Positions 1 to 42,099 are shown, counted from the first letter of the stretch. The stretch: DNA of 64,000 nt from an uncultured Hyphomicrobiales bacterium (GCA_964472015.1 CAYYIP010000004.1:8543-72542), one strand, 5' to 3'. Notes: generated by a model from the letters alone, not told the origin. Numbers and translations: made by a program.

Positions 1-1983
1 TATTTTGGTGGATACATAAATTATGGTTATCATTTTCATTTTATTAAAGATGGATTTTCCCTTTATTATGGGTTTCCTTATTTTGTTTCTGGTGATGTTC
101 ATAAAAAAGAAATTATTATGCCTATATTTCCTATCTTTAGTAAAGGTTCAGGTCCAGAATTTAATTTTGGAGGAATTTTTGAAAGTAAACTCAATCCTAA
201 TTTTAGTTTTGGATTTACTGCCGGTGCAGCAATAAGCGAAATAGATTTTAATTCAGATACTTTTCATATTATTAATAAACCCGGTACAATAGATACTATT
301 TATTATTGTTCTCAATATTTTGAGATAAAATTATATTCTATAAATTTAACACCTTATATAACATATAATATTTATAAAGGTTTATTCGCATCATTGGGGT
401 TAAATCTAGGTTTTATTGTGCATAGTGAAGCACGTGGATTTGGGGGCCTTTTTTATAAAGATATTTGGGATGAAACAAATAGAGAGCCTATTTTTTTCGA
501 TAGTGATGTTAATACAAATCATAATATTAAAGATTTTACTTCAGATTCTAATTTTGTAAAAACAGTTAATTTAAGTTTACCAATAGGACTTGGTTATAAT
601 TTTCATATTGGGCGTGGTATAATATTAACTCCATCTGTAAAATATAATTTAGCACTCACTAGTTTTTCTGATAAAAGAGATATAGATAATGAAGGAATAA
701 AGAATCGTATAACAGCTAATTGGGCCGCCAATAAAATTGAATTTGGTTTAGCTGTTAAGTTTCCAATAAGTAGTGAGGAAATTATAGAAGAAGATATAAT
801 TAAAGATGAATCAAATTTAAGTGCCGACTTAAATATTTATGGAATAGATACAAATGGGAATAGGATTTCTAATCCTACTTTAATTATAGAGGAAGTAGAA
901 ACAGAAGAGCATTTCCCTCTTTTATCAACAATATATTTTCCAGAAGGTAGTTCTAATTTATCAGATACTCGAACAGAATTACTTGATGATATAGGAGTAA
1001 GTAATTTTAGAGAAGAACACTTGAAAAGTGATGCTATTTCTATTAATCATAGTTTACTTAATATTATAGCTTATAGGATGTATTATAATAAAGATAGTAA
1101 GATTATGGTTGTTGGTTATTCAAATGAAAATGAAAGTTCTGAACTTGCTCTTGAACGTGCTAATACAGTAAAAAATTATTTAGTTGACGTTTGGGGTACA
1201 ACACCAGATAAAATTACTGTAAGAACAGATAAGATTCTAAATAAAAGTACTTCTTCAGATGCAATAGAAGAGAATTCACGAGTTGAAATATTACCGGCCG
1301 ATTTATCATCTTATGTTCTATTTACTCCTATCACTCTATCTTTTATAGATAAAATATCTAATCCACCTATGATTGAATTTGAACCAAGTGTAGAAGCAGA
1401 TGCGGGTTTTAGTAATTTAGTTTTAGATATTTCTCAAAAAGGGAATACTATAAAGCAATTTAATACCAATAGTACATCAAATATTTTATGGACCGTAGAA
1501 GGTATTGAATATGATAGTCCATTAAATGTCACTTTATTAGCAAGAGATTTTAATAATTCTAGTGTAAAAATAGATAAAGAAGTTTCTATTGAAAATATAA
1601 CAATGAGAACAAAGAAAGAAACCATTATAAAAGATAGTGGCTTAGTTGGTAATTATAAAATAGAACGTTATTCTTTAATTCTTTTTGAATATGATAAATC
1701 GGATATTTCTAAATTAGATGCTCAAAATATAAAAAATATAAAATCTCGTATGAAACCCAACTCAAAAGTTTTAATTTCAGGTTTTGGTGATAGGAATGGT
1801 ACTCAACAATATAATAAAAATTTAGCACATCGTAGGTGTGAAGAAGTTGCCAAATTATTAGGTGTCAAAAATGCTATAATCAGAGCTGTTGGTAATGATA
1901 ATTTGCTTTTTGACAATTCCTTTCCTGAAGGTCGAGCACTTTCACGTACTGTTCGTATAGAAATAAAAACTCCTATAAAATAA
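1..1983 (+). CDS. Outer-membrane/surface protein with two C-terminal OmpA-like domains, paralog A. It is 5'-truncated by the window edge; the frame is open from nt 1.
   Basis: Frame 1 is open from base 1 (YFGGYINYGYHF...), colinear with the N-terminus of the downstream paralog. OmpA-like motifs VVGYSNENESSELALERANTVKNYL and ISGFGDRNGTQQYNKNLAHRRCEEV are present. It is ~70% identical to the 2156..4213 product. Confidence 0.6.
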   Translation, partial: YFGGYINYGYHFHFIKDGFSLYYGFPYFVSGDVHKKEIIMPIFPIFSKGSGPEFNFGGIFESKLNPNFSFGFTAGAAISEIDFNSDTFHIINKPGTIDTIYYCSQYFEIKLYSINLTPYITYNIYKGLFASLGLNLGFIVHSEARGFGGLFYKDIWDETNREPIFFDSDVNTNHNIKDFTSDSNFVKTVNLSLPIGLGYNFHIGRGIILTPSVKYNLALTSFSDKRDIDNEGIKNRITANWAANKIEFGLAVKFPISSEEIIEEDIIKDESNLSADLNIYGIDTNGNRISNPTLIIEEVETEEHFPLLSTIYFPEGSSNLSDTRTELLDDIGVSNFREEHLKSDAISINHSLLNIIAYRMYYNKDSKIMVVGYSNENESSELALERANTVKNYLVDVWGTTPDKITVRTDKILNKSTSSDAIEENSRVEILPADLSSYVLFTPITLSFIDKISNPPMIEFEPSVEADAGFSNLVLDISQKGNTIKQFNTNSTSNILWTVEGIEYDSPLNVTLLARDFNNSSVKIDKEVSIENITMRTKKETIIKDSGLVGNYKIERYSLILFEYDKSDISKLDAQNIKNIKSRMKPNSKVLISGFGDRNGTQQYNKNLAHRRCEEVAKLLGVKNAIIRAVGNDNLLFDNSFPEGRALSRTVRIEIKTPIK

Positions 1984-2026
1984 TTTGGATAATATAATAA
2001 TTATATTTATTTTATTGTAAACTTAT

Positions 2027-2058
2027 AAAAGAGAAGCAAGTGCTTCTCTTTTTTTTAA
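2027..2058 (+). terminator. Rho-independent terminator of paralog A
   Basis: AAAAGAGAAGCaagtGCTTCTCTTTTTTTT hairpin plus T-tract. Confidence 0.7.
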
Positions 2059-2155
2059 TATAATTAAAAATAATTTTTTGTAAATTATTTTAATTATTAT
2101 TATATTAATATTTTATAAATAAATATTAATAAACTTTTAATTTATAGGTAATTGA

Positions 2156-4213
2156 ATGAATAAAAATTATAACAAATTTAGTTTACTACTAATACTTATT
2201 ACATTATTAATGTTAAAAAGTAACGTGTTATCTGCCGAGTATCAAAGTACGACTTATTTAGGTGGATATATAAATTATAATTATCATATGCATTCTGTGA
2301 AAGATAGTTTTTCAACTTATTTTTATGCTTATTTACCGCCACAAATTATTTTTGAGCCTACTTTTACTAAAGGTACAGGTTCAGGAGTTGATTTAGGAGG
2401 ACTTTTTGAGAGAAGACTTAATTCTGATTTTAGTATTGGATTTACTATAGGTGCAGCGTTAGGTGAAATAAATTTTATTGCAGATACTTTTAATATTTAT
2501 TTTGGTGAAGTTGTTAATGTTGAGAGTTTTTTTGAACCTCAATATTTTGATTTAAAATTCTATACTATAAATTTGACACCTTATGTAACATATAATATTT
2601 ATAAAGGTTTATTTGCGTCATTAGGGCTTAATGTAGGTTTTGTTATGCATAGTAATGCTGATTCACGTGGGAAATTTACTATTATAAATGCTGGTTATAG
2701 AGATTTTGAATTTGATTATAATAGAGATATATTATATTTAGATGGGGGGAGGAGCTTTACTATGGTGCATACACTTGATGATTTTAATACTGATGCTGAT
2801 TATGTAAAAAAAATTCAAATAGGTTTACCAATAGGACTTGGTTATAATTTTCATATAGGCAATGGAGTAATATTTTCACCATCTATAAGATATAATTTAG
2901 CACTTACTAGTTTTTCTGATAAAAGAGAGAGAGCAAGCGAAGATCTTCGTGTCCCAACAGATTGGATTGCTAATAAACTAGAAGTTTGTTTTGCTATTAA
3001 GTTTCCAACAGGTAGAATAAACGAAGAAGTTGTAGAAGATGATATAATTAATGATGAATCAAATTTAAGTGCTGACTTAAATATTTATGGAATAGATACA
3101 AATGGTAATAGGATTTCCAATCCTACTTTAATTATAGAGGAAGTAGAAACAGACGAATACTTCCCTCTCTTATCAATAGTATATTTTAAAGAAGGTAGTT
3201 CTAGTTTATCAGATACAAGAGTAGAATTACTTGAAGATATTGATGTAGGTAATTTTAGAGAAGAGAATTTACCGAAAGATGCTATTGCTATTCATTATAA
3301 TGCTCTTAATATTATAGCTAATAGAATGCATAATAATAAAGATACAAAAATTACCGTTGTTGGTTATTCAAATGATAATGAAAGTTCTGAACTTGCTCTT
3401 GAACGTGCTAATACAGTTAAAGATTATTTAGTTAATACTTGGAGTATAGTACCAAATAAAATTACTGTAAAAACAGATAAGATTCTAGATAAAAGTACTT
3501 CGCCAGATGCAATAGAAGAGAGTTCACGAGTTGAAATTGTACCAACAGATTTATCTTCTTATATTTTATTTTCTCCAATAAACTTATCTTTCGTTGATAA
3601 AGTTTCTAATCCCCCTATGGTTGAATTTGAACCAAAGATAGAAGCAGATGCAGGCTTAAATAATTTAGTTTTAGATATTTCTCAAAATGATAATAATATT
3701 AGGCAATTTAATAAAAATAATACTTCAAATATTTTATGGACAGTTAAAGATGTTGAATATGATACACCATTAGATATAACTTTACTTGTAAGAGACTTAA
3801 ACAATAAAACTGTAGAAGTAGATAAAAATATTTCTATTGAAAATATTACTATTAAAGAAAAAAAAGCAACTATTGAAGGTAATTATAAAGTAGAACGTTA
3901 TTCTTTAATTCTTTTTGAATATGATAAATCAGAAGTTTCTAAAATAGATGTTCAAAATATAAAAAATATAAAGTCACATATTCAATCCAACTCAAAAGTT
4001 TTAATTTCAGGTTTTGCGGATAGGAATGGGAATAGACAATATAATCAAAATTTAGCAAAACGTAGATGTGAAGAAGTTCGTAAGGTAATAGGAATAAAAA
4101 ATGCAATAATAAGAGCTATTGGGAATGATAATCTACTTTTTGATAATTCCTTCCCTGAAGGTCGAGCGCTTTCACGTACTGTTCGTATAGAAATAAGAAC
4201 TCCTATAAAATAA
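2156..4213 (+). CDS. Outer-membrane/surface protein with two C-terminal OmpA-like domains, paralog B. It has a signal peptide.
   Basis: Signal peptide MNKNYNKFSLLLILITLLMLKSNVLSA. The porin-like N-terminal region (GLGYNFHIG) and two OmpA-like C-terminal modules are the same as in the upstream paralog. Confidence 0.6.
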   Translation: MNKNYNKFSLLLILITLLMLKSNVLSAEYQSTTYLGGYINYNYHMHSVKDSFSTYFYAYLPPQIIFEPTFTKGTGSGVDLGGLFERRLNSDFSIGFTIGAALGEINFIADTFNIYFGEVVNVESFFEPQYFDLKFYTINLTPYVTYNIYKGLFASLGLNVGFVMHSNADSRGKFTIINAGYRDFEFDYNRDILYLDGGRSFTMVHTLDDFNTDADYVKKIQIGLPIGLGYNFHIGNGVIFSPSIRYNLALTSFSDKRERASEDLRVPTDWIANKLEVCFAIKFPTGRINEEVVEDDIINDESNLSADLNIYGIDTNGNRISNPTLIIEEVETDEYFPLLSIVYFKEGSSSLSDTRVELLEDIDVGNFREENLPKDAIAIHYNALNIIANRMHNNKDTKITVVGYSNDNESSELALERANTVKDYLVNTWSIVPNKITVKTDKILDKSTSPDAIEESSRVEIVPTDLSSYILFSPINLSFVDKVSNPPMVEFEPKIEADAGLNNLVLDISQNDNNIRQFNKNNTSNILWTVKDVEYDTPLDITLLVRDLNNKTVEVDKNISIENITIKEKKATIEGNYKVERYSLILFEYDKSEVSKIDVQNIKNIKSHIQSNSKVLISGFADRNGNRQYNQNLAKRRCEEVRKVIGIKNAIIRAIGNDNLLFDNSFPEGRALSRTVRIEIRTPIK

Positions 4214-4255
4214 TTGGATAATATAATAATTATATTTATTTTATTGTAAACTTAT

Positions 4256-4288
4256 AAAAAGAGAAGCAAGTGCTTCTCTTTTTTTTGT
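4256..4288 (+). terminator. Rho-independent terminator, identical copy of the 2027..2058 hairpin
   Basis: AAAAAGAGAAGCaagtGCTTCTCTTTTTTTT. Confidence 0.7.
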
Positions 4289-4368
4289 ATTTTTAATTAT
4301 ATATATATTTAATTTTTGTATTTTTGTATTCTTAATTATATATTTTATTCATTAAAATTTTATAAAAA

Positions 4369-4629
4369 ATGAAACGCGAAAATAGAATTTGTCAAAGTTG
4401 TGGTATGCCATTAAAAAAAGATCCAAATTCAGGTGGGACAGAAGCAGATGGTTTAAAATCAAAAAAATATTGTAGTTATTGTTATCAAGATGGTAAATTT
4501 ACTATGGATTGTACTGCAAAAGAGATGCAAGATTATTGTTATAATATGATGATTACAAAAATGAAAATGCCTAAATTATTAGCAAAGCTATTTACAATAA
4601 GTATTCCCAAATTAGAACGTTGGAAATAA
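4369..4629 (+). CDS. Small zinc-ribbon domain protein (Zn_ribbon_2-like)
   Basis: CQSCGMPL...x19...YCSYCYQDGKF pattern (C-x2-C ... C-x2-C-Y) in an 86-aa protein. Confidence 0.5.
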   Translation: MKRENRICQSCGMPLKKDPNSGGTEADGLKSKKYCSYCYQDGKFTMDCTAKEMQDYCYNMMITKMKMPKLLAKLFTISIPKLERWK

Positions 4630-4765
4630 ACATAATAATATTTTTTTATTTAAAATATAATTATAATACTAAAAATTAAATTAAAATATTATTTAATGTT
4701 ATTTTTATTTATTTTATAAACTTTATATTATGTCTCAAATATAGTTATGTATCGAGGAATATATT

Positions 4766-5398
4766 ATGGCATTATCCAAAACTATTTTAAAAGAATGTAA
4801 TAATATTTTGACCTTAGGCGGTACACTTGTTTTTCCTACTGAGACTGTTTATGGATTAGGCGCAAATATTTTTAATGAAGAAGCCGTAAGAAAAATATAT
4901 AGAATAAAAGGTCGTTCTTTTTCAAAGCCACTTACAGCGCATATTTCTTCTTTATTACAAGTAAAATTAATTTGTAATAATATTCCTGATATATTTTATA
5001 AATTAGCAGAAAAATTTTTGCCGGGACCATTATCTATTATAATTCCTAATGTTCATCCTAACGTTCCTAAAATTGTAACTAGTGGTTATGATACTATTGC
5101 AATTAGGTTTCCTAATCATAATATTTGCAAAGAAATAATAAATGATTTTTCTATTCCATTAGCAGCGACGTCTGCAAATATATCAGGTAGTAAATCACCT
5201 GTTAGTTTTGAAGAAATAGGGGTTGAAGTTATAAATAAAGTTGATAAAGTTATTAATGGTGGCGAATGTATTTATAAAACAGAATCTACAGTATTAAGTA
5301 TTGTTTCTAATCCAGTAGTTTTGCGTCAAGGTGTGCTAAATATTAACGAAATAGAAGAAGTTATTAATCAAAAAATAACAAAAGGTTTTAGAGAATAA
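4766..5398 (+). CDS. tsaC: L-threonylcarbamoyladenylate synthase, Sua5/YciO/YrdC family
   Basis: LVFPTETVYGLGANIFNEEAVRKIYRIKGRSFSKPLTAHISS, a YrdC-domain signature, in ~210 aa. Confidence 0.7.
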   Translation: MALSKTILKECNNILTLGGTLVFPTETVYGLGANIFNEEAVRKIYRIKGRSFSKPLTAHISSLLQVKLICNNIPDIFYKLAEKFLPGPLSIIIPNVHPNVPKIVTSGYDTIAIRFPNHNICKEIINDFSIPLAATSANISGSKSPVSFEEIGVEVINKVDKVINGGECIYKTESTVLSIVSNPVVLRQGVLNINEIEEVINQKITKGFRE

Positions 5399-5426
5399 TT
5401 TATAAGATAAGTAATAGTAAATTTCT

Positions 5427-7313
5427 ATGAAAAGTATAAGCCAAGATATTTTAAGAAGTATAACAGATCAAATCAATATAGTTGATTTGATAAGCGATTA
5501 TGTTTCTTTGAAATCAACAGGAAGTAATTATAAGGGATTATGTCCTTTTCATCAAGAAAAGACTCCTTCTTTTACTGTTTCTCAAGCAAAAGGACTTTAT
5601 TATTGTTTTGGATGTGGCGTGCATGGGAATGCTATTAATTTTTTACAAAATTATTTAAATATAAGTTTTTTAGAATCAGTTAATATGCTTGCTGAAAGAT
5701 GTGGTATTAATATTCCTAATCTACAAAATAAAAAGGAAGATCCTATAGAACAAGAATTAAGAAATTTATATCATATTGCTCAAAATTATTATTCTTTTTT
5801 GTTAAAAGATTTAGTAGGCAAAGAAGCATATAAATATTTTATAGACAGGAAATTATTACCAGAAACTATAGAAAAATTTGGACTTGGATATTCTTTAGAT
5901 GCTTTTGATAGTTTACTTAAAGAATTTAGGAAGCGCAATATATCTAATGAATTATTGGTTAATTCTGGTTTGATATCTCAAAAGAATGGTAAATATTATG
6001 ATTTTTTTCGTAATCGTGCAATGTTTCCAATAAAAGATACATTAGGACGAACAATAGCTTTTGGAGGAAGACAAATAGTAGTTGATAAAAATAGTGGAAA
6101 ATATATAAATTCTAGTGAATCTTTAATATATAATAAGAAAAAAATTCTCTTTGGATTATATGAAGCAATGTCAGAGATTCGTAAGACAAAAGAGGTTTTT
6201 ATTGTAGAAGGATATTTGGATGTTATTACTTTATCGCAAGCGGGAATAAAAAATGTAGTTGCACCGTGTGGAACATCGTTAACTATAGAGCAACTAAAGT
6301 TATTAGAAAAATATACGAACGTAAAAACTATTTATTTTTTGTTTGATGGAGATCAAGCAGGAGTGAATGCCACTATAAGATCTATACAAATAGTTCTAAA
6401 TATTGGATTCGATTTACGTATTATTTCTTTGCCTCCTAATGAAGATCCAGATAAACTTATAAATTCTGAAAATGGGATAGAACAATTTTATAAATATAAA
6501 GAAAATTATTTTTCTTTTGTTGAGTTTATTTATAAAAAATTAAAAGAAAATAATAAATTAACAACTGCTGTTGAAAAATCGAATGCTATAAGAGATATTA
6601 TAAAATTAATTTTATCTATACAAGATATTATTCAACATAGATTTTATCTTGAGAATCTTTCGGAAGTATTTAATTTTCCAATATATGATTTAAATATTAT
6701 ATATGAAGAAGAACGTAATAACAAAGCTGGGAATTCTAATAATTTATTAAATTTAAATAGTAAACTAAATAATGTAGTTAATATTGAAGATAGTTCAAAT
6801 AATGAAATTGAATTAAATATAAACGATTTAGAGGTTGAAGAAAAAGATATTTTAAAGTTTGCTTTAAAAAGTCCTAATAATTTTCGTTTTTTAAAAGAAA
6901 AATTTAATATTTCAGAAAATAATTTTATTACGAATATTGGGAAACTTATTTTTGAGATTATATTTGAATATTGGGATAATGAAAATATAATAAATGAATT
7001 ATATAATGATAATACTGTTTCTGCTACAATTATAAAAAATATAGAATATTTACAATCAGACGAGACTACTATAAGTGAAAATTGGAAAAGTTTTGTTGAC
7101 TTAGAGATAGAAAGTGAAATAAATTTAGAGAAAACTATGGAAGTAATTTTTTATAAATTACGTATTAAAGCTATTGAACTTGAGTTAAAAAAATTATTAG
7201 AGTTAATAAAAACAGCAGATACTATAGATAATACAAAAATATTATTAGAAAAAATGAAAATATTGCAAGATGAAAGAAAAAATATAACAGATAATTATTT
7301 AAAATATGAGTAA
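5427..7313 (+). CDS. dnaG: DNA primase with a long low-complexity N/E/K-rich C-terminal region
   Basis: CHC2 zinc finger CPFHQEKTPSFTVSQAKGLYYCFGCGVHGNAINF and Toprim core EGYLDVITLSQAGIKNVVAPCGTSLT. Confidence 0.9.
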   Translation: MKSISQDILRSITDQINIVDLISDYVSLKSTGSNYKGLCPFHQEKTPSFTVSQAKGLYYCFGCGVHGNAINFLQNYLNISFLESVNMLAERCGINIPNLQNKKEDPIEQELRNLYHIAQNYYSFLLKDLVGKEAYKYFIDRKLLPETIEKFGLGYSLDAFDSLLKEFRKRNISNELLVNSGLISQKNGKYYDFFRNRAMFPIKDTLGRTIAFGGRQIVVDKNSGKYINSSESLIYNKKKILFGLYEAMSEIRKTKEVFIVEGYLDVITLSQAGIKNVVAPCGTSLTIEQLKLLEKYTNVKTIYFLFDGDQAGVNATIRSIQIVLNIGFDLRIISLPPNEDPDKLINSENGIEQFYKYKENYFSFVEFIYKKLKENNKLTTAVEKSNAIRDIIKLILSIQDIIQHRFYLENLSEVFNFPIYDLNIIYEEERNNKAGNSNNLLNLNSKLNNVVNIEDSSNNEIELNINDLEVEEKDILKFALKSPNNFRFLKEKFNISENNFITNIGKLIFEIIFEYWDNENIINELYNDNTVSATIIKNIEYLQSDETTISENWKSFVDLEIESEINLEKTMEVIFYKLRIKAIELELKKLLELIKTADTIDNTKILLEKMKILQDERKNITDNYLKYE

Positions 7314-10424: not shown

Positions 10425-11153
10425 ATGAAATTAATGAATTTTGTGGTAGTAATTGCACTATCATTTTTTCTAATATCTAATAATAGTTTTGCAGAACCTA
10501 GTAAGGTTAAAGAACAATCTAATAATAACAGTACCGTTGAAAATAAAGAAAAAGTACAGCGCCCTATATTAAAAAAATCTGAAGTTGAAGAAGGAAGTAT
10601 TAATTCAGATAGTTTAAGGGCAGAGAGAATAAAATTAAGAAAAGAGAGAGCAGAAGCTAGAGCTAAAAGAGCTTTAGATACTACTGGTTCTGGTGATGTG
10701 CAGCGTCCTGTATTAAAAAAATCTGGAGTTGAAGATGGAAGTGTTAATTTAGATAGTTTAAGGGCAGAGAGAATAAAATTAAGAAAAGAGAGAGCAGAAG
10801 CTAGAGCTAAAATAGCCTCAGATACTACTGGTTCTGGTGATGTACAGCGTCCTGTATTAAAAAAGTTTAAAGTAGGAGAAGGAAGTATTAATTCAGATAG
10901 TTTAAAGACAGAGAGAATAAAATTAAGAAAAACTAAAGCAGAAACTGAAGATACAACAAAAGTTAAGACTCTTAAAAAAGGTACTATTGAGAACAAAGAA
11001 TGTTGTTCTAAGAAAAAAGAAGCAGATGCAGATTGTTGCAAGGAAACAAAGAATAAAAGTAATGAAAAATGTTGTAAAGAATCAAAGACAAAGAACAGTA
11101 GAGACAAAAAAAAGAGCTGTAAAGATACAATTTCAACAGTTAAACAAAAATAA
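10425..11153 (+). CDS. Secreted lysine-rich repeat protein with a C-terminal CC-motif tail
   Basis: The RBS-like sequence aggaaaagaagaaaATG precedes the start. Signal peptide MKLMNFVVVIALSFFLISNNSFA. There are ~2.7 copies of the 48-aa unit VQRPILKKSEVEEGSINSDSLRAERIKLRKERAEARAKRALDTTGSGD. The C-terminus is CCSKKKEADADCCKETKNKSNEKCCKESK. Confidence 0.55.
   Translation: MKLMNFVVVIALSFFLISNNSFAEPSKVKEQSNNNSTVENKEKVQRPILKKSEVEEGSINSDSLRAERIKLRKERAEARAKRALDTTGSGDVQRPVLKKSGVEDGSVNLDSLRAERIKLRKERAEARAKIASDTTGSGDVQRPVLKKFKVGEGSINSDSLKTERIKLRKTKAETEDTTKVKTLKKGTIENKECCSKKKEADADCCKETKNKSNEKCCKESKTKNSRDKKKSCKDTISTVKQK
10554..10960 (+). repeat. In-frame tandem repeat of 144 bp (two full units plus a partial third)
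   Basis: Units begin at 10554, 10698 and 10842. They are >90% identical at the nucleotide level. Confidence 0.8.
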
Positions 11154-37159: not shown

Positions 37160-39340
37160 ATGAATTCTTACTTTTTAGATATATCAGGCAACTATTTTTT
37201 ATTAGCATTACTTTTTATAGTTAGTATTGCTATCTCAATATTTTCATATAGAAATACTATTCCTGTAATAGATAAAAGTTCAAAAATAGCATTAATTACA
37301 TTAAGAAGTATTGCATTATGCTTAATTATATTTGCTATATTTGAACCTGTTTTTACAAAAATTAATGTGTTAAAAAAATCAGCACAACTTGCAGTTCTTT
37401 TAGATGATACACAATCATTATCTATAAAAAGTAAAAATAATACAAAAGAACAATATAGAAAATTATTATCTAATATAAATTTTTCAAAATTAGATACAAA
37501 TGTAGTTTTTTATAAATTTTCAGATAAAACATTTTTGATAAATAATTTTAATTTTGATTCTTTAAAATTAAAAGGAACTGCAACGGATATATCACAAGCA
37601 TTATATCATATAACTAGTAAGGCAGAAGAGAATAATACACGTGCTATATTATTAATTACAGATGGAGCGTTTAATACAGGTTCAAATCCTATATTTGAAG
37701 CAGAAAACTTTGCTAATCCTGTATATACGATAGGGATAGGAGATACAAATGAAGCAAAAGATATATCAATAATATCATTATTAACAAATGAAATTGCTTA
37801 TATAGATAATTCGATTCCTATAAATATAAATTTTAAATCAAATGGTTTTTCAAATAAAAATATCAAATTAACTTTATTTGATAATAAAACAAAAATAGCG
37901 GAACAGAATTTTACTTTAAGTGAAGAAACTAAAAATTATGCTGCAAATTTTGAATATAAACCTACAATAGAAGGGATACATAAAATAACTGCAAAAGTAA
38001 CAGAATTAGACGGTGAAATTACTACTAAAAATAATATATTATCTACTTTTATTAAGGTATTAAAAAATAAAAGAGTTATAGCTATGTTTGCAGGGTCACC
38101 GAATCCAGATTTTGCTTTTATAAAAAGAACATTAAAAGAAGAAAAAGGGATAGAAATAAAAGAATTTGTACAAAAATATTCAAGTGAATTTTATATAAAT
38201 CCAACGGAACAACAGTTATCAAATGTAGATATGTTTATATTTAATAATTTTCCTATTAGTTCTACTCCAAATCAGATACTTAATATTATAAATACAGAAT
38301 TAAATAAGGGGAAACCTTTATTTTTTGTTGCGGGACTTACTACTGATTATAGTAAATTAAAAATTATACAAGATCATTTACCTTTTACATTACTATCTAC
38401 AAAACAAAGAGAATTTACGATTGTACCTAATATAAATATAAAAGCTTTATCAAATCCATTATTAAGAGTAACGGGAACTGATAGTGATATTGATTTATGG
38501 AACAATTTACCACCATTATTTAAAACAGAGACATTTGTAAAAGTAAAACCGGAAAGTGAAGTAATATCTACAATAAAGGTAAATAACATAGCTTTGAATG
38601 ATCCACTTATAATTACAAGAGATTTTCAAAATAAAAAAACAGTTGCTATTCTAGGATATGGTTTATATCGTTGGAAATTACAAGGTTATGCAAATGAATT
38701 AGCAAAGGGATTAAAAGATACACCTGATTTATTTGCAACATTGATAAATAATACATTTAGGTGGTTATCGATATATGAAAAGCATAAAACAGTAAATGTA
38801 CGTACAACAAAAAAGCATTACAATCAAAATGAAAAAGTTGAATTTTTAGCAGAGGTATATGATAAAGCTTTTGTGCCTATTGATAATGCTGAAGTTTCTA
38901 TAGATATAAAATCAACTGATGAGACACGGAATATATTACTAACGTCAATAGGAAGTGGACGTTATTATGGAATAGTAGAAGGGTTATCAAAAGGTGATTA
39001 TTATTTTGATGCAAATGTAAAAGATGAAAGTAGAAAAATTGGAAGTGATAACGGAAGATTTACTATAGGTGAAATATCGATAGAATTTCAAAACTTAAAA
39101 CAAAATACTGATTTATTAAATACTATTGCTTATAGAACAAACGGGAAATTCTATAATGCAAACAATAAAAAAGAAATTGAGAATATAATTGATGATATAA
39201 TAAAAAACGATAATTTTAAGACTAAACCAATTACATTAAGGAATGAGTTGCATATATGGAATTGGATATGGTTATTATTAATAGCAATATTTTGTCTTGC
39301 AATAGAATGGTTTTTAAGAAAAAGGAAAGGATTATTGTAA
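37160..39340 (+). CDS. Large membrane protein with a BatA-N-like double-TM N-terminus, a vWA-like start and a C-terminal TM anchor
   Basis: Two N-terminal TM helices, then LAVLLDDTQSLSI (vWA-like DxSxS). C-terminal WNWIWLLLIAIFCLAIEWFLRKRKG. Confidence 0.4.
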   Translation: MNSYFLDISGNYFLLALLFIVSIAISIFSYRNTIPVIDKSSKIALITLRSIALCLIIFAIFEPVFTKINVLKKSAQLAVLLDDTQSLSIKSKNNTKEQYRKLLSNINFSKLDTNVVFYKFSDKTFLINNFNFDSLKLKGTATDISQALYHITSKAEENNTRAILLITDGAFNTGSNPIFEAENFANPVYTIGIGDTNEAKDISIISLLTNEIAYIDNSIPININFKSNGFSNKNIKLTLFDNKTKIAEQNFTLSEETKNYAANFEYKPTIEGIHKITAKVTELDGEITTKNNILSTFIKVLKNKRVIAMFAGSPNPDFAFIKRTLKEEKGIEIKEFVQKYSSEFYINPTEQQLSNVDMFIFNNFPISSTPNQILNIINTELNKGKPLFFVAGLTTDYSKLKIIQDHLPFTLLSTKQREFTIVPNINIKALSNPLLRVTGTDSDIDLWNNLPPLFKTETFVKVKPESEVISTIKVNNIALNDPLIITRDFQNKKTVAILGYGLYRWKLQGYANELAKGLKDTPDLFATLINNTFRWLSIYEKHKTVNVRTTKKHYNQNEKVEFLAEVYDKAFVPIDNAEVSIDIKSTDETRNILLTSIGSGRYYGIVEGLSKGDYYFDANVKDESRKIGSDNGRFTIGEISIEFQNLKQNTDLLNTIAYRTNGKFYNANNKKEIENIIDDIIKNDNFKTKPITLRNELHIWNWIWLLLIAIFCLAIEWFLRKRKGLL

Positions 39341-39405
39341 TTTATATAATAAGGGATTAATAAGTAGAAAATAAGCATAATTAAAAATTAAAGAGTAATT
39401 AAATA

Positions 39406-39726
39406 ATGAGTTGGTTATATTTATTTATTGCATCAATATTTGAAATGGGATGGCCATTAGGTTTTAAATTATCAAATGAAATTTCAAATAAAAAAATATT
39501 TTGGATTATAATTGCGTTTAGTTCAATGGCAATAAGTAGTTTTTTCTTATGGTTAGCGCAACGTGAAATACCTATTAGTACTGCATATATAATTTGGACA
39601 GGTGTAGGTGCTGTTGGGACTTTTATTATAGGTATAATATTTTTTAACGATTCTGCTAGTTTGATAAGATTATTTTTTGCTTTTTTAATTATGGTAGGAA
39701 TTATTGGATTAAAAATTATTCATTAA
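39406..39726 (+). CDS. Small multidrug resistance (SMR) family exporter, SugE/Gdx-like
   Basis: 106 aa with 4 TM helices and the conserved membrane Glu in FEMGWPLGFKLS. Tail WTGVGAVGTFIIGIIFFNDS. Confidence 0.8.
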   Translation: MSWLYLFIASIFEMGWPLGFKLSNEISNKKIFWIIIAFSSMAISSFFLWLAQREIPISTAYIIWTGVGAVGTFIIGIIFFNDSASLIRLFFAFLIMVGIIGLKIIH

Positions 39727-39820
39727 TTTTTAAAGTTTTTTATTATATTTGTAATATATTTCTTTTCATATTACATTGAAATATAAAAATTAATATATAA
39801 AAGCATTTGCTTTATTCTTT

Positions 39821-39974
39821 GCAGTCAGAAAATTTGGCGATTTAAAGATTGTATATAAAGAATAGGTTAAATGTTCACGAGTAAATGCGTGAACCTTAAC
39901 TAATCTCTATATACAAGGTTATGCCAAATACCTCTGACAGCGGGAAACGTTAAGTTTCACGCTCTTTTTATTTT
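39821..39974 (+). ncRNA. Structured RNA element copy 1 (unknown family), ending in an intrinsic terminator
   Basis: 5' GCAGUCAGAAAAUUUGGCGAUUUAAAGAUUGU, a central hairpin GGUUAAauGUUCACG/CGUGAACcUUAAC, and a 3' GGUUAUGCCAAAUAccUCUGA block. Terminator CGGGAAACguuaaGUUUCACGcucUUUUUAUUUU. Conserved against copy 2. Confidence 0.45.
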
Positions 39975-40245
39975 AAAAATTTTATAGATTATTTTATTTA
40001 ACAAAAGTATAATTTTTATAATTTAATTTGTTTTTCGAAAACGTCTTTTATAGTATTTTATTAGATATTTAATATAAAGTTTAAGATATAAAACAATTTC
40101 TGATTCAGATTATAATTTATGCAAAGGGAAGATATTGATAGATATATTAATGTTAAATAAGTTAAAAATTATGGAGAATTAATTTGTAAAATTTGTAATT
40201 TTTTTATTGTATTTATATATATTTTTATTATATTTGCACAAGATA

Positions 40246-40279
40246 TTTCTTAGTTGTATTATATAATACAACTAAGAAA
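40246..40279. promoter_or_regulatory. Perfect 34-bp palindrome (17-bp arms) about 35 nt upstream of RNA copy 2
   Basis: TTTCTTAGTTGTATTATATAATACAACTAAGAAA. Confidence 0.5.
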
Positions 40280-40315
40280 CATAAAAATTAATATATTATA
40301 ATAATTTTTATTCTT

Positions 40316-40503
40316 AGCGGTCAGAAAATTTGGCGATTTAAAGATTGTGTATAAAGAATAAAGGTTAAAAGTTTACTAGCATTGTGTGAACTTTTTAATT
40401 ATTTTCATATTCTCTTATCTCTACACATCATCAGGTTATCCCAAATAAATATCTCTACCTCTGATCTCTGTAAAATGTTAAGTTTCACGTTTTTTTTATT
40501 TTA
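40316..40503 (+). ncRNA. Structured RNA element copy 2 (unknown family), ending in an intrinsic terminator
   Basis: Same 5' block (GCGGUCAGAAAAUUUGGCGAUUUAAAGAUUGU) and 3' block (GGUUAUCCCAAAUA...CCUCUGA...GUUAAGUUUCACG then U8). The central hairpin is retained through a C-G to U-G change. Confidence 0.45.
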
Positions 40504-40541
40504 AAATTAAAAATACTTATCAATCTAAAAATATAATTAAA

Positions 40542-40822
40542 ATGGATAAAAAATAACTGCTTCACGAGTATCAAAAGGAAATAAATTATTTCCTCCGTCA
40601 ATTACAATTGAAGATGATGGATTAAGAATTAACTTTCCAGGTCTTTTTAGTGGGAAAGAAGAATTTGTTTTATATGAAGATATTTCTTCTATTTCTTTTG
40701 ATGCACCTATGGTTGGGTTTACAAAATTAAATTTAAACATAAGAGGACAAATTATTACTATTGAAGGATTTTATAAAAATGACGCAAAAGAAATAAAGAA
40801 TGTTTGGGAACAAAAAACGTAA
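40542..40822 (+). pseudogene. ~93-codon ORF disrupted by a frameshift at an A6 run (40548..40553) four codons after its ATG. One extra A restores the frame.
   Basis: ATG GAT AAA AAA TAA in frame 0. With A7 the frame continues: ITASRVSKGNKLFPPSITIEDDGLRINFPGLFSGKEEFVLYEDISSISFDAPMVGFTKLNLNIRGQIITIEGFYKNDAKEIKNVWEQKT, which is globular-looking. It lies 38 nt after the copy-2 terminator. Confidence 0.35.
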
Positions 40823-40914
40823 ATAAAAATAGAAAGACGCCGAAAAATTAGTAAATCACTATTAGAGTAGATAATAAATAAAATAATTAATAATAAATAA
40901 TAAAGGAGTATATA

Positions 40915-41028
40915 ATGTCATCAAAATGTAACTGGTGTTGCAAAGAATATAATGGGAAGGGATTTATTGGTTGTTGTTGTGAAATGTGCTACAAAGAGAA
41001 AGAGAAAAACGGCACAGATAATAAATAA
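40915..41028 (+). CDS. 37-aa mini zinc-ribbon-like Cys-rich peptide, paralog 1
   Basis: AAAGGAG RBS 7 nt upstream. MSSKCNWCCKEYNGKGFIGCCCEMCYKEKEKNGTDNK. Shares the pattern C-x2-C...GCCC-x2-C-Y with paralog 2. Confidence 0.4.
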   Translation: MSSKCNWCCKEYNGKGFIGCCCEMCYKEKEKNGTDNK

Positions 41029-41145
41029 TAACTTTAATCTATATTAAATTATTTATAAATATAAAACAAATGAAACCAAAGGAAGCCGAAAAAAATTTGG
41101 GAGCAATTGTTAGAGTAGGCTATAACAACAAATTTGGAGGATATA

Positions 41146-41250
41146 ATGGCTAGAAAATGCGATTGGTGTGGTAAAGAATTTACTGGTTCTAGTGTTTATG
41201 GTTGCTGCTGCAGAAAATGCTATGAAGAATATAAAAACAGCAGAAAATAA
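41146..41250 (+). CDS. 34-aa mini zinc-ribbon-like Cys-rich peptide, paralog 2
   Basis: GGAGG RBS. MARKCDWCGKEFTGSSVYGCCCRKCYEEYKNSRK. Conserved upstream leader blocks (GCCGAAAAA, TTAGAGTAG) are shared with paralog 1. Confidence 0.4.
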   Translation: MARKCDWCGKEFTGSSVYGCCCRKCYEEYKNSRK

Positions 41251-41440
41251 AATTTTTCTTTACTGTTTTATAAGGGTAGTTTTTGCTGCCCTTCTTTTAA
41301 TTTTTAAAGTATATTTCAATAACATATTAATAAAATATGGTTTATTAAAACTAATATAAATTTGAAAATAATTTTTTAAAATGATGTAAATTTAATAGAT
41401 TAGGCCAGAAAGGCTGAAAAAACAAAAAATATCAAGAAAA

Positions 41441-41530
41441 ATGGGAATTCCTTTAACACGTCAAGGTAGACAACGTGCAGTTGGTTCTATATTTATAAAT
41501 ACAATTTTAGATAATAGCAAAAAAGAATAA
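41441..41530 (+). CDS. Possible 29-aa peptide (MGIPLTRQGRQRAVGSIFINTILDNSKKE)
   Basis: A short ORF preceded by a GGCTGAAAAAA block that resembles the leaders of the Cys-peptide genes. Support is weak. Confidence 0.2.
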   Translation: MGIPLTRQGRQRAVGSIFINTILDNSKKE

Positions 41531-41646: not shown

Positions 41647-42099
41647 ATGAAGAAAAAAAGTATGAAGAAGACACAGGAAGAAAAGTCTTTTCTTAATCTG
41701 GCTGGTGAATATGGAGTTTGTGCTGAATTAAATAAAAGGAATATTTTTTCCAGTATAACTTATGGAAACCATAAGGCCGCTGATATTATTATTTTCAAGG
41801 ATGATAAAATATTTCGTATAGAAGTAAAAACAAGTACAACCAAAAAAGTTGTAACTGGCTTTTTTCAAAAATATGTTTCTAAAGATCAAAAACCTGCACC
41901 AGATTTTTGGGTACTTGTACATATTGATACTGAAACTTTTATATCAAGTTTTTATGTGCTTTCTCATATTGAAATGGGTGATGAACAAATGATATCAGAT
42001 AAAAAGGAAAGTTGGTCGCTTACTAAAGGTGTAGACAACATAGAATTTTCACGGTTAGAAAAATATAAAGATAAATGGGATAAATTGTTAAATAGTTAA
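41647..42099 (+). CDS. Small PD-(D/E)xK nuclease-fold-like protein
   Basis: Order of motifs: E in GEYGVCAEL, then D in AADIIIF, then E-x-K in RIEVKTS. 150 aa with a K-rich N-terminus. Confidence 0.4.
   Translation: MKKKSMKKTQEEKSFLNLAGEYGVCAELNKRNIFSSITYGNHKAADIIIFKDDKIFRIEVKTSTTKKVVTGFFQKYVSKDQKPAPDFWVLVHIDTETFISSFYVLSHIEMGDEQMISDKKESWSLTKGVDNIEFSRLEKYKDKWDKLLNS

Follow-up and report, generated by a model that had tools for sequence, protein, structure and literature searches.

A previously uncatalogued structured-RNA family in Bacteroidota, found as two tandem copies and possibly acting as a transcription-termination control leader

Structured RNAs that precede or accompany a gene and carry a terminator are known from several bacterial systems. 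Transcription-terminating riboswitches, orphan and tandem ones included, place a covarying multi-helix domain with near-invariant loops in a 5' leader on the strand of the gene. The small RNA (sRNA) genes PrrF1/PrrF2, Qrr1-5 and OmrA/OmrB form adjacent homologous copies, each with a promoter, a Rho-independent terminator, conserved ends and a divergent middle; they use exposed seeds and keep no fixed orientation. [quoted passage not shown] The put RNA of phage HK022 and the Bacillus EAR element are structured leaders that lie soon after the promoter of accessory or mobile operons, with terminators behind. Here we describe two tandem elements, W1 and W2, in a 64,000-nt stretch of DNA (GCA_964472015.1 CAYYIP010000004.1:8543-72542, hereafter the window) deposited under the name of an uncultured Hyphomicrobiales bacterium. 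Both are members of a previously uncatalogued structured-RNA family in Bacteroidota, and we see about an even chance that this family is a cis-acting leader controlling transcription termination, either riboswitch-like or as a factor-dependent attenuator.

The two elements are located on the + strand, W1 at ~39800-39975 and W2 at ~40305-40503, with a start-to-start spacing of 496 nt (repeat family D17). The original prediction, made from the sequence alone, had placed two tandem elements ~495 bp apart downstream of an SMR gene; the repeat is real and the gene, at 39406-39726 and upstream of both elements, matches PF00893. In the repeat search of the window a 54-nt 5' block was 94% identical between W1 and W2, and the 24-mer GTCAGAAAATTTGGCGATTTAAAG occurred exactly twice where none was expected from 100 shuffles. 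A 3' block, GTTAAGTTTCACG, is present at 39949 and 40477, and a near reverse complement of it lies within the middle hairpin of W1 at 39888-39900. Over the whole W1/W2 alignment mean column identity is 82%, the middle of the second copy being longer and divergent. Covariance model R2 detected no further copies within the 64-kb window. The predicted extent needed correction, in that the conserved RNA reaches further 5' than the core first described, to take in a hairpin at 39800-39813 and the tract UUUAUUCUUU. The -7 promoter consensus of Bacteroidota is TAnnTTTG, and each copy has such a box ahead of it, with the initial transcribed sequence ATATTTCTT common to both. The window has a G+C content of ~25%, and ribosomal protein L28 from the same contig groups with proteins named 'Bacteroidota bacterium' from metagenome-assembled genomes (MAGs). 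Both copies fold into a rod of four paired segments (P1 to P4, with joining strands J), and their features are as follows.

39744-39751, + strand: -7 promoter box of W1, TATATTTG (regular-expression scan; 65 nt 5' of the model start)
39800-39821, + strand: 5' flank of W1, hairpin AAAGC-AUUU-GCUUU (39800-39813) followed by the pyrimidine tract UUUAUUCUUU; conserved in the family alignments
39822-39829, + strand: W1 P1 5' strand, CAGUCAGA; partner 39933-39940
39832-39839, + strand: W1 P2 5' strand, AUUUGGCG; partner 39922-39929
39840-39848, + strand: W1 internal-loop strand J2/3, AUUUAAAGA; opposite GGUUA, 39917-39921
39849-39857, + strand: W1 P3 5' strand, UUGUAUAUA; partner 39908-39916
39873-39894, + strand: W1 P4 hairpin, GUUCACG, loop AGUAAAUG, CGUGAAC (minimum free energy fold)
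39908-39940, + strand: 3' half of the W1 rod, with the P3 3' strand, J3/2 GGUUA (39917-21), P2 3' strand (39922-29), J2/1 ACC (39930-32) and P1 3' strand (39933-40); minimum free energy fold and covariation
39939-39974, + strand: intrinsic terminator of W1, AGCGGGAAAC-GUUAA-GUUUCACGCU, then CUUUUUAUUUU; -10 kcal/mol folded alone
40229-40236, + strand: -7 promoter box of W2, TATATTTG (regular-expression scan; 76 nt 5' of the model start)
40305-40503, + strand: W2, a diverged copy, with P1 at 40318-25/40460-67, P2 at 40328-35/40439-46 and P4 at 40371-78/40384-91 (covariance model)
40542-40822, + strand: open reading frame (ORF) of a 93-aa type behind W2, with a frameshift at an A6 run, 40548-40553 (translation)

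W1 (39783-39975) has a minimum free energy (MFE) of -53.6 kcal/mol (z = -6.2) and W2 one of -36.3 kcal/mol (z = -2.2). Two long-range pairings proposed earlier, UCAGA with UCUGA and AUUUGGC with GCCAAAU, correspond to P1 and P2; they appear in the MFE folds of both copies and covariation in the homologues confirms them. Within W1 the UUUAUUCUUU tract is complementary to AAAGAAUA at 39857-39864, and the 3' arm of P4 is also complementary to 39955-39962. W2 carries one C-C mismatch in P2, a U-G pair in P4 and a 10-nt insert (40447-56) between P2 and the RCC segment. The exchange of a C-G for a U-G pair in the middle hairpin, put forward as support for selection on structure, is as described but on its own is weak evidence of selection, and the family-wide data carry the case. 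A terminator had been predicted at the end of each copy. W1 indeed has one (AGCGGGAAAC/GUUUCACGCU at -10 kcal/mol, with a U-run), and the same type of hairpin and U-run is found in homologues L002, L003 and L004; in W2, however, the terminal hairpin has a decayed 5' arm and reaches only -2.3 kcal/mol before U8 (40470-40498). A simple consensus terminator scan flags neither W1 nor W2. Of all family members W1 scores highest, at 182 bits (covariance model R1); under R2 it has 163 bits, and the corresponding values for W2 are 102 and 79.

Eight further distinct members (L002, L003, L004, L011, L038/L039, L043, L049 and L051/L052; 44-182 bits) were identified in a Prevotellaceae MAG (L002), in metagenome contigs and in contigs of IMG/VR. 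An exact 21-mer from the 5' block was searched against 185,579 species genomes, giving L002 and a match in a Lachnospiraceae MAG (L001), which was rejected as a chance match having only the 21-mer in common; the metagenome contigs L003 and L004 were likewise found by the exact 21-mer. Model R1 was built from five sequences (W1, W2, L002, L003 and L004) and recognised L011 among nine 17-mer matches in IMG/VR. From the exact-word scans of IMG/VR only L011, L051 and L052 pass, the remaining matches failing the covariance model, and L038/L039, L043 and L049 were reached through contigs encoding relatives of the gene behind L011. Since the genome and metagenome scans used one exact 21-mer, the census is certainly incomplete. 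Queries with W1 and the L052-type RNA using blastn gave no match in phage or plasmid collections.

The original prediction could not assign the element to a familiar riboswitch class, and this was borne out by comparison with Rfam 15, in which none of the 4227 models (including 6S, the riboswitch classes, abiF and the Bacteroidales motifs) matched the element at the gathering score in a search of the whole window. At E<=10 the region 39300-41500 gave noise only (snoR22, E 0.8; IsrR, E 3.3), and the homologous elements of L002-L004, L011, L038, L043, L049 and L052 had no match either. Full-text literature searches gave no match to the core sequences, keyword searches yielded analogies only, and of the 408 supplementary files that accompany a human-microbiome structured-RNA catalogue, the first 200 contain no match.

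The species of the window is itself represented on ten contigs from other samples, W1 being present in all ten and W2 in five. Three of these same-species assemblies (L030-L032) end ~300 nt after W1, just before the 5' block of W2, as would be expected if the W1/W2 repeat confuses the assembly of short reads. The presence of the two elements explains both these breaks and an otherwise odd 1.3-kb non-coding stretch in the window.

All ten sequences share an RNA of ~150-200 nt with the rod P1-P2-P3-P4. It starts with a small 5' hairpin, which covaries when read directly (AAAAGC/GCUUUU in L002, AUAAGU/ACUUAU in L003), followed by a tract of pyrimidines, which in the window type reads UUAUUCUU. 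P1 is 6-8 bp long and differs in sequence in almost every member; across the ten sequences 8/8 of its pairs are changed on both sides, with 93.8% of cells paired. P2 has 8 bp and reads AUUUGGCG/YGCCAAAU in nine members, being wholly exchanged to CCUAGGAA/UUCCUAGG in L049 (97.5% of cells paired). Near-invariant internal loops flank P2, with AA(A) opposite RCC on one side and AUUNAAAG opposite GGYYA on the other; the J2/3 strand is AUUUAAAG in six members, AUU[AG]AAAAG in three and longer in L049. P3 is long and irregular, and its outer 5 bp vary in nearly every member (95.6% of cells paired, with double-sided changes in 5/5 pairs). P4 forms a G+C-rich tip hairpin (..CACG/CGUG..) with a variable loop; family-wide, 92.5% of its cells are paired, and its G-U wobbles are compatible with this strand only. 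The 3' part returns through GGYYA, the P2 3' strand, RCC and the P1 3' strand to a hairpin and U-run.

Covariation was counted in two alignments. In alignment A6, consisting of hand-cut ungapped helix segments, 94.7% of 285 cells are standard pairs and 21 of the 29 pairs are changed on both sides; 0/500 shuffles reach the observed value, and sliding the partner by 1-3 columns leaves 29-48% of cells paired. Because the registers of A6 were picked by eye the count was repeated on the model-made alignment A5, where 84.7% of cells are paired, 35/48 pairs are changed on both sides, again no shuffle of 500 reaches the observed value and the slid controls give 31-44%. Numerous pairs are G-U, a combination compatible only with the window's + strand, and the covariance model scores the reverse strand far lower (for L002, 34.7 versus 166.9 bits); the structure is thus one at the RNA level. 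The U-runs are 3' of the RNA. A conserved, covarying fold of the kind that riboswitch aptamers have is thus part of the family. Covarying homologues had been set as a test of the element; they were found in other Bacteroidota and in metagenomes, and the two long-range pairings are their best-supported helices.

Nine of the ten members have a TAnnTTTG box, at a distance of 38-156 nt 5' of the model start. The next start codon follows the RNA at a distance of 21-134 nt with no promoter box between, and in 9/9 cases with a gene this gene is on the same strand. A same-strand 5' leader without an intervening promoter, the arrangement found in riboswitches, is therefore seen in 9/10 members including W2, the exception being W1, which is followed by W2. 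Within L002 and L003 the start codon comes only 21-28 nt after the U-run. L011 and L052 are near-identical through the RNA and ~90 nt beyond and then lead into different genes, so that RNA and promoter behave as the conserved head of a variable cargo. The genes behind the RNA at the other loci are listed here.

L011 and L043: DrmD-like SNF2 helicase downstream
L038: DrmD-like SNF2 helicase, then a type III methyltransferase and a type III endonuclease
L049: DrmD-like SNF2 helicase, then a type III methyltransferase
L052: type II-like DNA methyltransferase downstream; tyrosine integrase 1.1 kb upstream
L004: tail-fibre/S74-like protein downstream
L003: 69-aa membrane protein downstream
L002: 196-aa hypothetical protein downstream

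Downstream of the rod the members divide into two arrangements. In five members (L011, L052, L043, L038 and L049) a downstream segment is able to pair with the rod's 3' half, made up of part of the P2 3' strand, RCC/J2/1 and the P1 3' strand. When the 5' strands are left out of the folding, this pairing gives a hairpin of -24 to -40 kcal/mol with a U-rich tract after it. In the full-length MFE folds of L011, L052 and L043 this hairpin replaces P1. The downstream arm changes in step with P1 across loci (GAGAGUA, AAGAGAC, GAGAGU, CAACGUG), and the predicted structure looks like the terminator/anti-terminator of a riboswitch-style expression platform. The window-type subgroup (W1, L002, L003 and L004) has a separate terminator hairpin of -10 to -13 kcal/mol that starts at the end of P1. 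The only conserved competitor of the terminator in this subgroup is a pairing between the 3' arm of P4 (GCGUGRRC) and the 3' arm of the terminator (..CACGC). This complementarity is present in 10/10 sequences, where pairing extends to 92.5% of cells and three pairs differ on both sides, and it is kept in L011 and L038 although their terminator 5' arm is unrelated to P4. Duplication does not produce such a similarity of swapped arms, which suggests that another pairing, one that would undo the terminator, has been selected for. As a simple alternative fold this pairing was rejected, being disfavoured by 11-27 kcal/mol when forced as a nested structure against rod plus terminator.

In some restriction-linked members (L038, 5860-5900; L043, 1590-1610) the segment after the RNA repeats the sequence of the P2 3' strand (CGCCAAAUAGG in L038), which could compete for the P2 5' strand as a second layer of alternative pairing. 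Attenuation by a leader peptide was considered and rejected; by eye, a 10-codon ORF of W1 starts in P4, but none like it is conserved among the other members.

As a termination-control leader, each copy would be transcribed from its own TAnnTTTG promoter and fold into the rod, with P2 and the conserved loops serving as putative sensor for a ligand or protein. With the rod closed, P1 and P2 would be formed; with the rod open, the freed P2 and P1 3' strands would pair downstream into a strong terminator, and the genes behind would not be transcribed. In the other genomes the RNA just ahead of anti-phage restriction genes probably decides between transcription stop and read-through. A leader or attenuator is favoured because a same-strand gene always follows, no promoter box lies between, and the terminator competes with P1 in five loci. 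The likeness to transcription-terminating riboswitches extends to these five members, where the P1 3' strand is shared with a terminator whose other arm covaries with P1, and the window resembles tandem riboswitches in having two units in series, the terminator of W1 being strong and that of W2 weak. The original prediction of an unassigned structured RNA, either a stable sRNA or a riboswitch/attenuator leader, is supported to this extent: the homologues favour the leader, and the window copies decide neither.

Several observations weigh against this assignment. W1, with a promoter of its own, precedes no ORF; what comes next is AT-rich DNA for 255 nt, then the W2 promoter. The terminator of the window-type subgroup abuts P1, overlapping it by only 0-3 nt, and the 11-27 kcal/mol cost of its one conserved competitor means that a switch there would need a pseudoknot with a bent rod, a factor or kinetics. 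Unlike the genes regulated by riboswitches, those downstream of the RNA are mutually unrelated and do not form a coherent set, so that no ligand can be guessed, and no Rfam class is matched. Neither candidate for an obligate partner held up, as DrmD-like helicases occur without the RNA in L044-48 and L065-69, and homologues of the 93-aa ORF adjoin GIY-YIG, PIN or zinc-ribbon genes without the RNA. Finally, the family counts only 10 distinct sequences, several of them closely related, and the helix registers of alignment A6 were set by hand.

How Bacteroidota control restriction and other defence or accessory cassettes is little known, and regulation by RNA has been poorly mapped in this phylum. 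The family offers a concrete regulatory element in this setting, and model R2 allows a full census. A bolder form of the leader proposal, which we regard as rather doubtful, is that the family constitutes a new class of RNA sensor, a riboswitch or a factor-responsive attenuator, which in Bacteroidota of gut and rumen gates the transcription of accessory cassettes carried by integrative elements, restriction and DrmD-like ones among them, and switches by an unusual swapped-arm pairing of P4 with the terminator. Were this so, the signal sensed would be one that has had no connection so far to the control of anti-phage defence by RNA. A ligand or protein partner, if one exists, would reveal what these bacteria sense before switching on such genes.

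The alternative that survives best, which we would call possible though clearly less probable than a leader, is that W1 and W2 are stand-alone genes for trans-acting sRNAs, pairing through the UUUAUUCUUU tract or the loop AUUUAAAG, with the downstream genes as neighbours and not targets. At the sequence level each copy has its own TAnnTTTG box and U-run, and both copies are stably kept across independent assemblies. W1 suits such a role best, with a strong terminator (-10 kcal/mol and a U-run) and no ORF behind. Translation start regions of Bacteroidota are typically A-rich, and the pyrimidine tract would match them. The two adjacent copies with conserved ends and divergent middle recall PrrF1/PrrF2, Qrr1-5 and OmrA/OmrB; however, conservation here lies in the internal loops and the P2 helix rather than in an exposed seed, and the elements always point towards a downstream gene. 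The orientation-independence of such sRNA genes is not seen: wherever a gene follows, which is so in nine members, it is encoded on the strand of the RNA, starts 21-134 nt downstream and has no promoter box in the interval. The short distance from U-run to start codon in L002 and L003 and the competition between terminator and P1 in five members likewise speak against free-standing sRNAs.

A protein-binding element, either an RNA antitoxin or inhibitor (like the abiF-motif RNA RCd22 or a type III antitoxin) or an antitermination RNA of the put/EAR type, which would modify RNA polymerase so as to pass the terminators behind, seems unlikely. The layout of promoter, structured RNA (twice in the window), terminator and defence gene matches that of type III toxin-antitoxin and abiF loci, defence genes stand behind the RNA in five loci, and the invariant P2 with its loops would suit a protein site. 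The multi-copy RNA of such systems has its counterpart in the two copies of the window, the other loci having one copy each. However, Pfam and PADLOC scans revealed no protein common to the loci and no ToxN, AbiD/F or Abi_2 type downstream, ToxI-like short tandem repeats, which would be processed, are lacking, the phylum is a different one, and the RNA resembles abiF neither in sequence nor by model, nor does it resemble any other family of Rfam. A covarying competition between P1 and terminator is moreover not needed for an antitoxin. The put and EAR elements share the position of a structured leader soon after a promoter of accessory DNA, but their folds differ and they show no terminator competing with their own helices.

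A DNA-level element (recombination site, attC-like hairpin, miniature inverted-repeat transposable element or mobile-element end) is very improbable, for although the loci are in variable or accessory regions, L052 has the tyrosine integrase upstream and a cargo differing from that of the otherwise near-identical L011, and the rod is a long imperfect palindrome, the helices keep G-U wobbles that the opposite strand would have as A-C mismatches, the promoter boxes and U-runs are specific to one strand and consistent in their placement, the units carry promoters, their P1 ends differ in every member, no conserved RYYYAAC/GTTRRRY pair (only W1 and W2 have GTTAAGT, and L002 has GTTGAGT, inside the loop of the terminator) or flanking direct repeats were found, the plasmid and phage collections gave no matches and only two copies exist in 64 kb.

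Returning to the window copies and their possible role as termination-control leaders, an ORF had been reported 38 nt after the second copy. An ATG is indeed located there (40542), but it opens only four codons (ATG GAT AAA AAA TAA); the actual 91-codon frame runs from 40550 to 40822 and is out of frame with this ATG by one base, one A being missing. Homologues of this ORF have 92-97 aa, share 65-82% identity and start with MG(K/R/Q)K(I/Y)TASR. Five independent assemblies, all of which carry W2, agree on the A6 run, which is therefore a real pseudogene lesion or slippage site and not a sequencing error; programmed slippage may occur at this run. W1 is an intact copy that probably ends mostly as a terminated small RNA, and W2 looks like the decaying leader of a decaying gene. 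Gene callers instead call an antisense 67-aa ORF at 40537-40740.

Further downstream, at 40830-41250 on the + strand, are two tandem Cys-rich mini-ORFs of 37 and 35 aa (CxWC...CCCxxC, zinc-ribbon/YHS-like). A similar motif, GCCGAAAAA..TTAGAGTAG, stands ahead of each, as does a GGAG that resembles a Shine-Dalgarno sequence, 8 nt upstream of the ATG. A Shine-Dalgarno-like GGAG ahead of the ATG is unusual for Bacteroidota. The mini-ORFs are followed by a 150-aa PD-(D/E)xK-like ORF at 41647-42099.

A diversity-generating retroelement, inserted beside or inside the DrmD-like gene, is present on the contig of L011 within positions 1-6800; it comprises variable and template repeats at ~4100-4700, a reverse transcriptase and an RT-17 RNA (72.9 bits). 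On the same contig a SAM-I/IV riboswitch match above the gathering score (10517-10628, 50.2 bits) is located ahead of a 93-aa ORF, 2.6 kb upstream of the new RNA.

Across the whole 64 kb of the window (1-64000) there is no tRNA, rRNA or other Rfam family at the gathering score. The window contains other repeats besides W1 and W2. A segment of ~2.2 kb is duplicated in tandem at 311-4259 with 80-94% identity (families D1, D2, D4, D6, D12-D15 and D18), presumably representing two paralogous genes, and three head-to-tail copies of a 144-nt unit with 75-93% identity (family D3) are located at 10554-10985.

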